From an uncultured Candidatus Saccharibacteria bacterium (lineage in GTDB: Bacteria; Patescibacteriota; Minisyncoccia; Phycocordibacterales; CAIZIN01), in assembly GCA_964462115.1 (NCBI GenBank), contig CAYWWA010000001.1:25795-87061 (forward strand): a stretch of DNA of 61,267 nt. The letters are read 5' to 3'. Position numbers and translations under genes: made by a program. The notes under the pieces were generated by a model. That model was not told the origin of the DNA and ran no database searches. It saw only the letters and a list, made by a program, of their open reading frames with translations. Shown here piece by piece: positions 12,259 to 45,871 of this stretch. Each line of letters starts with the position of its first letter. The stretch's first letter is position 1.

Positions 12259-12750
12259 TTATTTTTTGATGGCCAAGGCAAAACCGCCGCCATCGTGCTT
12301 GGTCTGGTGGGAAAGATTTTTGAGACCTAAGAGTTTGTGTCCGTGGTTCCGACCCCAGCCCACCACTCCGCTGCCGACATCCATGGGGAGCTCTGTGCCC
12401 AGAGCCAACCAGTACCATTTGAGTTTGGTGACCATTTTTCCCTCTCTGTCGGGGTAAGTGAAGTCGCGTTCGGTTAGGTTTTGTACTTCACCTACCTTAT
12501 GCACGAAATAGAAGAGTTCGGCCATGTTGGCTGGACGATATCCTTGTCTATCCATTGCGTCTATAGTGGTGGACCAAGTAGGATAAACATCAGTACTAAA
12601 ATCTAAGTAATTATACTGAGACAAGTCTTCTTCTACACTAAGAGGAAACGCCTGCTTGGTGCCGGCCAGCAGAAATGGGCTGGTGTAGTCCAGATGGCCC
12701 AAATTTCTTATCATCTCAAGGACAGCATCCTCATTTGAAATGAGTATCAT
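12259..12750 (-). CDS. Hypothetical protein homologous to the C-terminal module of the AAA+ protein at 43598-45871
   Basis: 163 aa. QGYRPANMAELFYF...QNLTERDFTYPDREG...KLKWYW...GGGFALAIKK aligns with the AAA+ C-terminus. AGGAG SD lies 6 nt upstream of the ATG. Visibly GC-richer than its flanks. Confidence 0.75.
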   Translation of the reverse strand: MILISNEDAVLEMIRNLGHLDYTSPFLLAGTKQAFPLSVEEDLSQYNYLDFSTDVYPTWSTTIDAMDRQGYRPANMAELFYFVHKVGEVQNLTERDFTYPDREGKMVTKLKWYWLALGTELPMDVGSGVVGWGRNHGHKLLGLKNLSHQTKHDGGGFALAIKK

Positions 12751-12912
12751 TTTTTTCTCCTTTTTAAAAGAACCTGTGGGTTTGCCTTTTAGTAATTTGA
12801 TAGTAAATAATTACTTTTTTACTTAAACAAAACACCTGTCTTGCCAAGAAAAGACTAACTAAAACTCTTTTTATTATATCATATATTAAAAATTAAGTCA
12901 AATATAAGACTC

Positions 12913-41388: not shown

Positions 41389-42300
41389 TTATAAATTCTT
41401 CAGATTTTTTTGTAATATTTCCGCTAAAACTTTAGGCAAATCAGCTGCTGACTTAGCAAGAACCGCTCCCCCAGTTTCTTCAGGGGTTTTACCTTCTGGC
41501 AGCGCGGTCGGATTGACTTTATAGGTTTCAAGAGCTGAGGCGCCATCTTGGGTAATACCAACACCGATAACTACAATTCCCTGTTGTCTGATATTAGAAA
41601 CAATATTTTGCATATCGCCAATATAGTCCGCTTCGCCGTCTGTCATCACGATGATAATTTTCTTTAATTCACCAGTTTTAATTTTTTCTATAGTTTCGTG
41701 AGTAAACGAGTTATTCATTTTTTGCAATAAATTATTGTCGCCATTGGAAGAGTCTCGGCTGGTTTGAATAATTTTAGTAGCAGATTTAATACGGTCGGTT
41801 TCAGAAAAATCTTCGCTCATTGATTTTAATAAAGTGTCGCTACTATTACCAAAGAAGCGAAGAACTTCTGAACGAAAAGTCAATAGTTTATCCATATTTA
41901 TTTTTTCTTCTTCGGCAACATCAGCGAAGCGTTTGAGAGTTTCCATGAATAGGACAGCGGCTTTGAGTTGTTCCTGTGATTTCTCTCCTTCCATACTACC
42001 CGAGCCATCACAAACCAAAGAAATTTCCACTTCGCCAAATTGGTCAGCTTTTTTTTCCTTAATTTCAACGCTTTCCCAAACTTTAGGTTTAAAATTACCC
42101 GCCATCCCGCTCACTACTACCTGTGTCGGATCAACTAAATAATCACCTTCTTCTTCAGGATATTTCGGAGCAAACTTTTTAGCGGTGCGTTTGGAAATAA
42201 TTCGGCGGAGTAAATTCTCCATTTCATCAACCAAAAATTCATTAGTTTCAGGATTCTTAAGCTGATTTAATTGTTCAGCCAATTGACGATAATTTTGCAA
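41389..42300 (-). CDS. vWA-domain protein segment; the frame is open upstream to 42474 and is probably the C-terminal part of a frameshifted HExxH-vWA protein
   Basis: MIDAS motif LVCDGSGSM with a Rossmann-like IIIVMTDGEA. There is no ATG in the open frame upstream of the track's TTG. This is the -1 frame relative to ORF 42393-43478. Confidence 0.75.
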   Translation of the reverse strand: MQNYRQLAEQLNQLKNPETNEFLVDEMENLLRRIISKRTAKKFAPKYPEEEGDYLVDPTQVVVSGMAGNFKPKVWESVEIKEKKADQFGEVEISLVCDGSGSMEGEKSQEQLKAAVLFMETLKRFADVAEEEKINMDKLLTFRSEVLRFFGNSSDTLLKSMSEDFSETDRIKSATKIIQTSRDSSNGDNNLLQKMNNSFTHETIEKIKTGELKKIIIVMTDGEADYIGDMQNIVSNIRQQGIVVIGVGITQDGASALETYKVNPTALPEGKTPEETGGAVLAKSAADLPKVLAEILQKNLKNL

Positions 42301-42392
42301 TTCTCGTTTCTGAACTCCGAGTTTGTCGGCATATTGTTGGTCGGGGTCTTGCTGCTTAGCTGCCTCATCTTTAATAATTTTTTTGGCTTGGT

Positions 42393-43478
42393 CTAAGATG
42401 CTTTTTTCTTGTTCAGCTGTGATGGGTTTAGGAAATTTTTTGTCAAAAGCATCATAATCAGATTTAAATAATCGTTAGGATCTATCTCACCCAAGCCATC
42501 GGATGGGCCTTGGGTTGACTTAGGCTCACCTGACGATTTGTCTGATGAACTATTTTGATTTTGATCATCTTGACCCTGGCTTAGTTGCGACTTATCTTGT
42601 TCACCTGGTTGGTTTTCTGGCGGTTGATTATTTTGATCTCCATGATCGTCACCACTTTGTCCACTTGCATTTTCTGGTGGATTTTTTCTATCTTCAATAT
42701 CCTGTTCTTTTAATTTTTCCATTTCTGGCACGACAAATTTATCTTGCAATTTCCAACGCATTTCCATCGGCAAAGCTGTGCTGGTCGTTAGCTTAAATAA
42801 ATTTTTACCAGTCTTGGTTTTGGCCGACAAAACTCTATCCACCGCTTCGCGCACCTCAGGAGCCACCGTGCATTTTTTGTCAGGAAATTGTCCTTCAACT
42901 AAAAGAGTTTGAGAGAATTGAATGTGTCTCGGAGACTGAGTAAAGTCTAAACTTTGAAATAAATCTTTATCGTAGGTAGTGCGGCGCACAGTCTCAAAAC
43001 CCTGATGGATCTTTTCAGTGACAGCGTCATTTTGGCGATTATCAGACACACAATTATCAAGCGTGGCAAAAGCCCGATCTTTTTTCAGTCGTCCAAGATA
43101 TGTTTCGAAGTTAGCAATACCTTCTGGGGTTTTGAGAATATCCATCATTTCTTCTAAATGCCCAACTTCGTGGGCTACCGCGAAAACTGTCGCCTGCTCC
43201 CGTTCTTCTTTGGATAGTTTGCTTTCGGCATTTTGATAAAATCTTTCGCTAACACCGACTACACCCTTTTCTAAATCAACATAAAATGTGTCTTTTTTGG
43301 ATGGTTCAACTGTTATTTGGCTACCAGCCATCTGCTCAAAAACCGCACGATTTCTTTCAAAAAACTCCATCGTGGTCTGTTCAGCTTCAGCAGTCTTTAA
43401 TTTGGGTAGAATTTCCGGCTCATTTTTAGGACTAACTTTAGCTGAAGTTTTAATGGCTGGTTTTTCAAAGTTATTCAT
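42393..43478 (-). CDS. HExxH metallopeptidase-like protein (the 0-frame product, or the N-terminal part of the fusion)
   Basis: 361 aa with FAVAHEVGHLEEM (HExxH) and an acidic/Q-rich low-complexity region before the frameshift window. Confidence 0.7.
   Translation of the reverse strand: MNNFEKPAIKTSAKVSPKNEPEILPKLKTAEAEQTTMEFFERNRAVFEQMAGSQITVEPSKKDTFYVDLEKGVVGVSERFYQNAESKLSKEEREQATVFAVAHEVGHLEEMMDILKTPEGIANFETYLGRLKKDRAFATLDNCVSDNRQNDAVTEKIHQGFETVRRTTYDKDLFQSLDFTQSPRHIQFSQTLLVEGQFPDKKCTVAPEVREAVDRVLSAKTKTGKNLFKLTTSTALPMEMRWKLQDKFVVPEMEKLKEQDIEDRKNPPENASGQSGDDHGDQNNQPPENQPGEQDKSQLSQGQDDQNQNSSSDKSSGEPKSTQGPSDGLGEIDPNDYLNLIMMLLTKNFLNPSQLNKKKAS
42397..42468 (-). promoter_or_regulatory. Candidate -1 programmed ribosomal frameshift signal: slippery T_TTA_AAT, 8-nt spacer, 9-bp stem
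   Basis: Heptamer at 42462-42468 in register X_XXY_YYZ with the 0 frame. The stem arms are gatgctttt (42445-42453) and aaaagcatc (42397-42405). The 0-frame stop at 42393-42395 follows directly. Confidence 0.5.
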
Positions 43479-43597: not shown

Positions 43598-45871
43598 CTA
43601 ATTACGGACGGCAAGCCAAAACCCACCACCACTCCAGCCATCCGCCCCATAATCCAAGCCCAGCTTCCGCCCATCACCACCCCAATTCCAGTAACCAACC
43701 CAACGCGAAGAGCCAACCGACAACACCGAAGCGGGGTCAGCGCAAGGCCAAAACCATTTGTTTTTAGTGATTGAGTTTCCGTCTTTGTCAGTATAACTGT
43801 AATCACGGTGAGATAGGTTTTGAGCGGTTTCTTGGTCTTGGATGAAGGACAGGAGTTCAGCTAAGTTAGCTGGTCGGTAGCCTTGGTATTTCATAGCTGC
43901 TTCAGCTTGGTCTCGGGTGTCATATTGGTCGGTGCCGAATTTGTCAAAGTTGTATTTAGAGAAATCTTTCTCAATACTTTGTGGTAGGATTTGAGCGATA
44001 TTGTTCATAATATCTTCGTCAAGGTAATCTTGGGGATTGACGGCGTTAATTAGGGATTGGAATTGGTCGGGGGTGGAGATGATGGCAAAAAGTTCAGGGT
44101 TGGGCGGGTTGGTTTCAGCGGTGTCAGGAGTGTTTAGATCACCCAACTCTCCCGCCGCTTCAGCCGACACTGCTTGTTGACGTAATTGAAAAGGATCCAG
44201 ATTAGCCAAATCTTGAAGATTGAAATGTTCTAGCGCTTGGGATTTTTTAATATTTTCTGCTTGAAGTTGAGGTGTTTGAAAACCTGAGATGGTGTGAGGG
44301 TCTAAGCCTAAGCTAGACTCTGAGACAGCTTGGATCAAGCCTCTTTTGACTAAGACTTTAGCCGCTAAAGCGCGGTCAGCTTTGGTGTATTCTTTGAAAG
44401 TTAAGGAGGTGACTAGTTGTTTGTCTAAGAATTCCACAAAGGAAGACTGGTCAGTGTGAGTACGGTGACGCCAGAGGGTGATGATGTTGGCTAGAGTGCG
44501 TTGGTTCCAGACTAGTTTTTGGAGAGTGTCAATTTTTCCATTGACTTCCTGAGCTTGATAATCTTTGGCTTTGTCTGGACTAATGGTGCCTTGATAAAAC
44601 TCTTGAACGTCAGCGAAGGCTTTACATAATTGAGGCAGGGTGACGGCGAGATCATAGCGGGAGAATTCCAGGTTGCCTTGTTCGTCCATTAGGCGAATGA
44701 GAGCGGTATCGTAGGTTTCGTCTTGGGGGGAATAGTTGATTTCTAAGTTGTTTTGATCAAACTCGTTGGCCATTTCAGGGGGTAGATCTTGCCGTTCGGT
44801 GTTTTTGGCCGATTTAAGGTTGGCGGTGAAGATGAATTGGAAACCGGGAGCGATGGGAGTTTTGCCGTCACCCACAATATTGACTTCATCACCAGGTTTA
44901 GCGTTAAGCAAACCCTTAATCATCACCATCTGCTCTTTAGGTAAGGCGGTGAATTCGTCAAAGACGACAACCCTACCTTCCTTCATGGCAGTGGCTAATG
45001 GACCGTTTTTGAAGATGGTCTGCTGGGCGGAGATGACTCGTTTGGTCACGGTCTTAGTTTGACCAGTTAGGTCAGTGTCGGTAAAGCTGCGCTCTTCGTA
45101 AACTGGTTCAATACCCATGGCGCCCCAGATGTTGCTCTCTCGAGTCTGAGGATTGCAGTAGATGACTTCAGCTTCTTGACCAGTGAAGTGTTTAGCGGCA
45201 AATTTAGCTAAGGAGGTTTTCCCCGTGCCAGTGGCGCCATGGAGAAACATTGGTAAGCCGGAGATCAGGCGTTGACCAATTTCAGTTAGGTTGCGTTGAG
45301 TGGTGGGCATCATGGCGATGTGACCAGAGGCGTAGAGATCAGCTTTGTAGCTGGCTAACTCGGCGGCGCGAGTCAAGATGGGATGTTCAATTTGAGCGGT
45401 GGTTAATTGAGCTTGAAGTTGATCCAGTTGTTGATGATATTGCTCTAAGATCAACTTTTTAACTCTGGATTTGGGAGCTTTGGCTAAAGCTAGTTGACGG
45501 GCAAAGACCTCAGCGGTGAGCTTAGCTTGTTGAGTCAGAGTGGCGCGGAGCTTGAGATAGTCGGGTCCTAAGGTTTGCGCTAGGTAGTCTTCATCAATGG
45601 GCTGGTCAAATTTGTCTCGATCAGCGCGAACTTGCTCTTTGGCTTTGGTGATACTGCCGTAGTCGGCTACTTGGATCTGACGGTGTTTAGCGATGATTTC
45701 AGTTAGAGCTTGATGCAAAGCGGCTTTTTGGCTGGCTGAGATGGGGGAATGGTCTAACTCGCTTAGTTCTTGCTTGGCTTCATTTTTTTCTAAGTGGAGT
45801 TGGTGGAGGTTGGAGTCGGAAGTGGAAGCTTTAGCTATTTTAGCTTTAGTTCCTTGAGGAGAATGGTTCAT
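43598..45871 (-). CDS. AAA+ ATPase of the MoxR/AAA_5 type, with an N-terminal coiled-coil region and a novel C-terminal module
   Basis: 757 aa with Walker A HGATGTGKTS (residues 211-220), Walker B VVVFDEF, and FIFTANLK. The C-terminal ~125 aa are homologous to ORF 12259-12750. TGATATAAT-N6-ATG lies upstream. Confidence 0.8.
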   Translation of the reverse strand: MNHSPQGTKAKIAKASTSDSNLHQLHLEKNEAKQELSELDHSPISASQKAALHQALTEIIAKHRQIQVADYGSITKAKEQVRADRDKFDQPIDEDYLAQTLGPDYLKLRATLTQQAKLTAEVFARQLALAKAPKSRVKKLILEQYHQQLDQLQAQLTTAQIEHPILTRAAELASYKADLYASGHIAMMPTTQRNLTEIGQRLISGLPMFLHGATGTGKTSLAKFAAKHFTGQEAEVIYCNPQTRESNIWGAMGIEPVYEERSFTDTDLTGQTKTVTKRVISAQQTIFKNGPLATAMKEGRVVVFDEFTALPKEQMVMIKGLLNAKPGDEVNIVGDGKTPIAPGFQFIFTANLKSAKNTERQDLPPEMANEFDQNNLEINYSPQDETYDTALIRLMDEQGNLEFSRYDLAVTLPQLCKAFADVQEFYQGTISPDKAKDYQAQEVNGKIDTLQKLVWNQRTLANIITLWRHRTHTDQSSFVEFLDKQLVTSLTFKEYTKADRALAAKVLVKRGLIQAVSESSLGLDPHTISGFQTPQLQAENIKKSQALEHFNLQDLANLDPFQLRQQAVSAEAAGELGDLNTPDTAETNPPNPELFAIISTPDQFQSLINAVNPQDYLDEDIMNNIAQILPQSIEKDFSKYNFDKFGTDQYDTRDQAEAAMKYQGYRPANLAELLSFIQDQETAQNLSHRDYSYTDKDGNSITKNKWFWPCADPASVLSVGSSRWVGYWNWGGDGRKLGLDYGADGWSGGGFWLAVRN

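Follow-up and report, generated by a model that had tools for sequence, protein, structure and literature searches.

Probable one-nucleotide deletion at a slippery-looking heptamer in a gene for an HExxH-vWA protein of a CPR-type bacterium

The HExxH ORF and the vWA ORF that overlap in the window (the whole 61,267-nucleotide stretch of DNA analysed here) are two pieces of one disrupted gene with a product of ~696 aa. We put at roughly 0.85 the probability that a non-programmed one-nucleotide deletion, either a mutation or an assembly error, split this gene. Loss of one T from TAT-TTT-AAA (Tyr-Phe-Lys) would have placed all downstream sequence in the -1 frame, and the same loss would have turned T_TTT_AAA_T into T_TTA_AAT, a heptamer of slippery appearance. 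A reading of the sequence alone had left a choice between programmed -1 frameshifting, its headline, and a one-nucleotide indel or assembly error; the evidence upholds the second and speaks against the first. The sequence features behind that reading are real, and the programmed frameshift most probably is not. For annotation, the deposited 361-aa and 303-aa proteins are best treated as a single disrupted gene of ~696 aa.

The split gene and its uninterrupted relatives

The minus-strand ORF of 361 aa carries HEVGH at residues 103-107 and comprises an HExxH module (residues ~29-269), a low-complexity disordered linker (270-331), the pentapeptide DPNDY that starts the C-terminal module, and a 24-aa out-of-frame tail, LNLIMMLLTKNFLNPSQLNKKKAS, which had struck the sequence-only reading as unnatural and indeed has no counterpart in the family alignment. 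Sharing 79 nt with it (42396-42474), the -1 frame encodes a conserved helical segment (fusion residues ~334-432) followed by a vWA/MIDAS domain with DGSGS at fusion residues 491-495, and its product gives a Pfam VWA match (2e-11). Such an extension of 357 codons in the -1 frame lies far outside chance and encodes the family's conserved C-terminal half. The extent of the 361-aa ORF, the overlap and both stops are as had been reported (Table 1). Likewise confirmed is the lack of an ATG in the -1 frame ahead of the TTG at 42300, and GTG and TTG are absent there too. The public record consists of two proteins of 361 and 303 aa.

Table 1. Coordinates in the window of the split gene, the elements at its junction and the adjacent ATPase gene
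Feature	Position	Strand	Description
0-frame ORF	42393-43478	-	HExxH ORF; scores against the family profile only to profile position 302
0-frame stop TAG	42395-42393	-	
-1 frame open region	41389-42474	-	361 codons plus stop; stop at 41389-41391
TAA	42475-42477	-	upstream closure of the -1 frame; any frame change must lie 3' of it
Heptamer T_TTA_AAT	42462-42468	-	X_XXY_YYZ register relative to the 0 frame; in GAT TAT TTA AAT CTG
TTT run	42466-42468	-	where one T was probably lost; TAT TTT AAA TCT before, TAT TTA AAT CT now
9-bp inverted repeat	42397-42453	-	arms 42445-42453 and 42397-42405; 39-nt loop
TTG	42298-42300	-	first possible start in the -1 frame; starts the deposited 303-aa vWA ORF
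AAA_5 (MoxR/dynein-related) ATPase	43598-45871	-	757 aa; Pfam AAA_5 2e-15; immediately upstream

When the conceptual two-frame fusion (696 aa) was used as query, it retrieved 84 homologues, and all 84 are single proteins (494-706 aa, mostly 600-700), most of them 35-44% identical to the fusion over 95-99% of its length; where an organism is named, it is a MAG of the Parcubacteria or Taylorbacteria type. Scanning the GTDB species representatives gave 47 loci, and by tblastn and ORF inspection the ORF is uninterrupted at 44 of them. At two loci (L038 and L045) runs of masked N obscure the frame, and the frame changes seemingly present there were rejected as due to these runs; the seemingly half-length matches at four others (L037, L039, L040 and L046) were likewise discarded, their ORFs being full-length and the low-complexity linker having split the BLAST alignment. 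Another locus, L041, is broken elsewhere, between KADE and DYAKK ('gatgagactatgcc'), with no slippery motif at the break. An apparent one-nucleotide deletion (gat gag [g]ac tat gcc) lies at positions 990-1010 of this 1.9-kb MAG contig, which serves as a control and shows that sporadic one-nucleotide deletions do occur in assemblies of the HExxH-vWA family.

With only the 361-aa ORF as query, HMMER run exhaustively over 1.84 billion representatives yielded 165 clusters, mostly of 600-780 aa; none of the nine shorter matches inspected is broken at the window site, these being fragments or having assorted break positions. The two-frame arrangement is conserved in none of the 84 proteins, 47 loci and 165 clusters, a comparison in which no relative exceeds 46% identity and whose reach ends short of recent conservation. 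From these three sets it follows that a single ORF is the ancestral and general state. The family itself, which is uncharacterised, belongs to Patescibacteria/CPR-type genomes, where it is a single protein of ~600-700 aa, and has been seen almost only in CPR-type MAGs. The sequence-only reading had held that orthologues in the form of single uninterrupted ORFs, with no conserved slippery site, would tell against recoding, and this is what the orthologues show: neither the heptamer nor the two-frame arrangement is conserved.

Aligned to 21 homologues, the fusion shows precisely where the frame changes. The ordered C-terminal part opens with D-P-N-x-x-F-[K/A]-x-x-Y-x-x-x-x-K-K-F-P, in which D333, P334 and Y342 are invariant and F at position 338 is found in 21/21 aligned homologues, followed by Ala in most and by Lys in the closest ones. 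Frame 0 of the window supplies DPNDY and frame -1 supplies FKSDYDAFDKKFP; after the TAA, frame -1 reads R-L-F-K-S-D-Y-D-A-F-D-K-K-F-P, and homology jumps frame exactly between Tyr (TAT, frame 0) and Phe (TTT, frame -1). Homologues have ATT/ATA TTT at the junction and then AAA or GCx. The closest relative (L048) reads GAT CCA AAT GAA ATA TTT AAA GAT TAT TAT GAT, to which the window aligns as GAT CCT AAC GAT TAT TT- AAA TCT GAT TAT GAT. Adding one T (TAT TTA AAT to TAT TTT AAA T) gives DPNDYFKSDY with the family spacing regained, and the T-restored window equals this relative codon for codon at TTT AAA.

The trans-frame peptide put forward in the sequence-only reading, IDPNDYFKSDYDAF, is an exact match to the family motif DPNxxFKxxY. 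It is the product of an inserted T, whereas a tandem slip on T_TTA_AAT would give DPNDY-L-N-SDY; a slip in the P site only would give L-K. A P-site slip that yields the conserved Phe was rejected, as tRNA-Tyr would have to re-pair from UAU to UUA. Scored with the profile of the 21 homologues, the T-restored product reached 694.4 bits, and the slip products 690.8 (Leu-Lys) and 690.1 (Leu-Asn). All invariant residues of the family, those of the MIDAS DxSxS included, are kept in both halves. What a single-nucleotide indel should leave is thus found at this gene: homologues that are uninterrupted, and one nucleotide that restores both the frame and the conserved residues.

The heptamer and the inverted repeat against their background

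The heptamer described in the sequence-only reading is present and in register, and it lies within the overlap of both frames, as expected of a frameshift site. Across the 18,781 codons of the window's genes there are 193 in-frame X_XXY_YYZ heptamers, ~1 per 97 codons; T_TTA_AAT accounts for 13 of the 193, and the 79-nt overlap alone holds four heptamers. The perfect 9-bp stem is there as well, with the arms gatgctttt (42453-42445) and aaaagcatc (42405-42397) fully complementary, the first arm 8 nt past the heptamer and the 0-frame stop after the second, but it is statistically unremarkable. Folding of the 86-nt region gives -10.1 kcal/mol (z = -1.5), a stability also reached by 18 of 200 shuffles, and the window has 112 inverted repeats (9-nt seed, within 60 nt). 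For the 77 nt downstream of the heptamer the value is -8.7 kcal/mol, compared with a mean of -11.4 (sd 4.6) over the 193 in-frame heptamers, 132 of which have an equal or more stable downstream fold. Both the shuffles and the 193-heptamer comparison reveal no stimulatory structure clearly above background stability at the heptamer, and no SD-like stimulator is visible in the sequence at a dnaX-type distance upstream of it. Individually, heptamer and stem are within chance and add little to the case for frameshifting.

Elsewhere in the window, the strongest downstream fold (-28.8 kcal/mol) follows an in-frame T_TTT_TTT at 458 (minus strand, in ORF 227-1312), which is outside the 12 longest -1 frame extensions listed. 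The second strongest of the 193 (-24.9 kcal/mol over 77 nt) follows an in-frame G_GGA_AAA at 12442 (minus strand, in ORF 12262-12810), where the -1 frame is open for 64 codons and 58 codons of the 0 frame remain.

All 64 heptamers have been measured in E. coli (Sharma et al., 2014; PMC4066793). Efficient ones need an all-purine or all-pyrimidine A-site codon, only U_UU.A_AA.G is listed as efficient in the U_UUA_AAN set, and the shift-prone tetramers do not include A_AAU (PMC4066793). D_DD.A_AA.H motifs, U_UUA_AAU among them, are efficient in eukaryotic systems; 61% of the heptamers tested in E. coli without a stimulator shifted 2- to 10-fold over the ~0.05% background, and weak motifs are probably used by some IS elements (PMC4066793). 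By this literature, which concerns E. coli and not the ribosomes of the host, T_TTA_AAT falls outside the heptamer class that is efficient in bacteria, and would count as canonical among eukaryotic viruses and as poor in bacteria.

Being an automatic by-product of a T lost from T_TTT_AAA_T, the heptamer offers in its register and presence no independent evidence for recoding. More generally, the loss of a base from an X_XXX_YYY codon string automatically yields a 'canonical' slippery heptamer in the right register, and because single-base deletions make such heptamers in this way, a heptamer plus an overlap is by itself weak evidence for recoding in AT-rich genomes.

Origin of the break

The one-nucleotide deletion is most likely non-programmed in origin. 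Because both halves keep every residue that is invariant in the family, the break is recent or artefactual. We rate a recent mutation that is real, in a pseudogene or a strain variant, and an error of the assembly or consensus as about equally likely. By cluster look-up the proteins of the window occur only as singletons of a single NCBI contig (89,860 bp); looking up the exact sequences of the 361-aa ORF and of the ATPase returned no independent assembly, and a JGI metagenome scan with six 8-residue peptides returned no relative; as the sequence is known from a single assembly, real mutation and assembly error are inseparable. Among the ~48 genes of the window no other broken gene was found, which argues against a generally noisy or error-prone assembly; wherever else two ORFs of one strand overlap or abut, their Pfam domains are complete and differ, or there are none. 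Transcriptional slippage and phase variation, which need far longer homopolymer runs, were rejected, the only homopolymers at the site being T3 and A3.

Two points count against a simple deletion. In-frame X_XXX_YYY sites number 60 against 1,478 homopolymer runs of at least 4, and a heptamer exactly at the junction is expected for a few per cent of random homopolymer deletions, which modestly favours frameshifting or a selected leaky mutation; the coincidence is in part a selection effect, since the site was chosen for its heptamer. The break also falls at a domain boundary, where a short HExxH-only product next to a full-length one would make a sensible design.

These points bear on three readings that invoke slippage. 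Evolved programmed -1 frameshifting on T_TTA_AAT, helped by the 9-bp stem and delivering 361-aa and ~696-aa products in a fixed ratio, fits a heptamer in the right register exactly where homology switches frame, a stem that begins 8 nt downstream, a -1 frame with no start codon until 42300, a break between the end of the disordered linker and the start of the ordered C-terminal module, and the retention of all invariant residues in both halves. We nevertheless consider it very improbable, given an arrangement conserved in 0 of the 84 proteins, 47 loci and 165 clusters, the replacement by Leu-Asn or Leu-Lys of a Phe common to 21/21 aligned homologues, a heptamer class that shifts poorly in bacteria (PMC4066793), a stem (z = -1.5, 39-nt loop) weaker than the fold at 132/193 heptamers, the lack of an SD-like stimulator upstream at a dnaX-type distance, and three further heptamers in the overlap that show how easily such motifs arise. 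If true, it would be a rare instance of programmed frameshifting outside mobile elements, in a cellular gene of an ultra-small bacterium and seen at its very beginning. Just as improbable, in our estimate, is a new frameshift site specific to this lineage, in which the T deletion would have been fixed because slippage yields both the HExxH module and the full-length protein; a cellular gene of a CPR-type bacterium would then have gained a recoding site through an indel.

Somewhat less improbable, and still unlikely, is a real one-nucleotide deletion tolerated through adventitious 'compensatory' slippage on the new heptamer, with little full-length protein made. Compensatory frameshifting is documented as a concept (Atkins et al., 2016; PMC5009743), random deletions reach a heptamer only in a few per cent of cases, so that tolerance of a leaky allele would enrich for such a site, and 61% of E. 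coli heptamers shift unaided at 2- to 10-fold above background (PMC4066793). The efficiency to be expected is a fraction of a per cent, however, the product would have Leu-Asn in place of Phe-Lys, and the deletion itself may be an assembly error, the heptamer coincidence being partly one of selection. Under a non-programmed deletion too, adventitious ribosomal slippage on T_TTA_AAT could occur, as a side effect and not as an evolved mechanism. Slippage would yield the trans-frame peptide DPNDYLNSDYDAF or DPNDYLKSDYDAF; in terms of predicted peptides, DPNDYLNSDYDAFDK or DPNDYLK would denote slippage, DPNDYFK would denote TTTT, and DPNDYLNLIMMLLTK only would denote termination in frame 0.

Least probable of all, to the point of being barely credible, is a genuine gene fission with the HExxH protein and a vWA protein from the TTG at 42300 made independently, even if the deposited record has the 361-aa and 303-aa proteins and bacteria can initiate at TTG. 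Homology in the -1 frame reaches the junction, 58 codons upstream of the TTG, and the region before the TTG holds the invariant Y342, Y383, A384, G388, V389 and L394; the confidently modelled helices 334-390 and ~58 family-profile positions would be lost. An evolved fission is disfavoured because homology and modelled helices extend upstream of the TTG in this manner. Moreover, there is no convincing SD 5-10 nt upstream of the TTG, and a two-gene version split at the window site was found in no relative inspected.

Protein architecture, genomic neighbours and known systems

An AlphaFold2 model of the fusion (mean pLDDT 73.7) has an ordered N-terminal module (~29-269), a disordered linker (270-331), acidic and Gly-rich across the family, and an ordered C-terminal module from 333/334 (DPN) with helices at 334-432 and then a vWA fold. 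Foldseek against the PDB matched the MIDAS domain of Rea1/MDN1 and the VWA domain of NorD from NorQ-NorD, and D491, S493 and S495 of the MIDAS DxSxS are invariant in the alignment. The upstream neighbour is an AAA_5 ATPase gene (Table 1), and an AAA_5 neighbour also occurs at the homologue loci L046, L049 and L050. An adjacent AAA_5 gene and DxSxS, the hallmarks of a MoxR-type AAA+/vWA-MIDAS pair, are therefore both present, and the Rea1/MDN1 and NorD fold matches fit a MoxR-type AAA+ ATPase with a vWA partner; the HExxH-vWA protein is presumed to be the partner of the adjacent AAA_5 ATPase. In the N-terminal module, H103, E104 and H107 are invariant in the family. The HExxH ORF scores 16.5 bits with Pfam Zn_peptidase (cut-off 23.2) and 15.5 bits with NCBIfam (cut-off 250), both far sub-threshold, and the PDB fold matches listed for the fusion are vWA/MIDAS-type entries with no peptidase among them.

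The ATPase has features of its own. Its C-terminal ~170 aa (43598-44100, minus strand) have a stand-alone paralogue at 12262-12810 (minus strand; 37% identity, E = 2e-32); both end in GGGF-LA and neither has a Pfam match. The gene order at L046:698-6631 is an AAA_5 ATPase (777 aa), a 273-aa protein, the HExxH-vWA protein (616 aa) and a second 273-aa ORF, the two 273-aa ORFs being identical in their first and last 40 residues. CPR genomes may share a conserved module of ATPase, small protein, vWA protein and small protein, and in the window the small-protein domain appears fused to the ATPase. The segment 44001-46000, inside the ATPase gene, has a GC content of 0.457 and a GC skew of +0.25; the rest of the window ranges from 0.33 to 0.41 GC with mostly negative skew.

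At several homologue loci the HExxH-vWA gene lies inside a bAvd/RT (DGR-like) cassette. L040:145-5760 encodes, in order, bAvd (PF22296), an RVT_1 reverse transcriptase, a 322-aa protein, HExxH-vWA and a 333-aa paralogue, which is 66% identical to the 322-aa protein with scattered substitutions near the C-terminus (...GVRPARCFF). bAvd and RT lie directly upstream of the HExxH-vWA gene at L048:117-3439, and upstream ORFs at L038:1370-2389 and L045:2901-4052 have N-termini that look RT-like by eye. These loci suggest that the HExxH-vWA family works with hypervariable proteins; in the window, tblastn found no reverse transcriptase, Avd or variable protein of the L040 type.

With NorQ-NorD, CbbQ-CbbO, RavA-ViaA and the Rea1/MDN1 MIDAS domain the window shares an AAA+ ATPase and a vWA partner with DxSxS, and it differs from NorQ-NorD, CbbQ-CbbO and RavA-ViaA in a partner that adds an N-terminal HExxH module and a long disordered linker. 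With dnaX, the IS3/IS911 orfAB genes and the phage tail chaperone G/GT it has in common an in-register motif, a short overlap, a downstream inverted repeat and an architecture of short and fusion products. Known bacterial -1 sites, however, are conserved among orthologues, use A_AAA_AAG, A_AAA_AAA, G_GGA_AAG or similar heptamers, and combine cognate A-site re-pairing with demonstrable stimulators (PMC4066793), whereas the window site has no conservation, an A-site AAU that is poor for bacteria and a structure at background level. The likeness is closer to frameshifted MAG genes (pseudogenes or consensus indel errors), which are a single ORF in relatives, change frame at a short homopolymer and recover their conserved residues with one nucleotide, L041 being a second, independent example. 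Unlike typical cases of this kind, the deletion in the window makes a textbook X_XXY_YYZ heptamer, in the sole broken gene of 61 kb.
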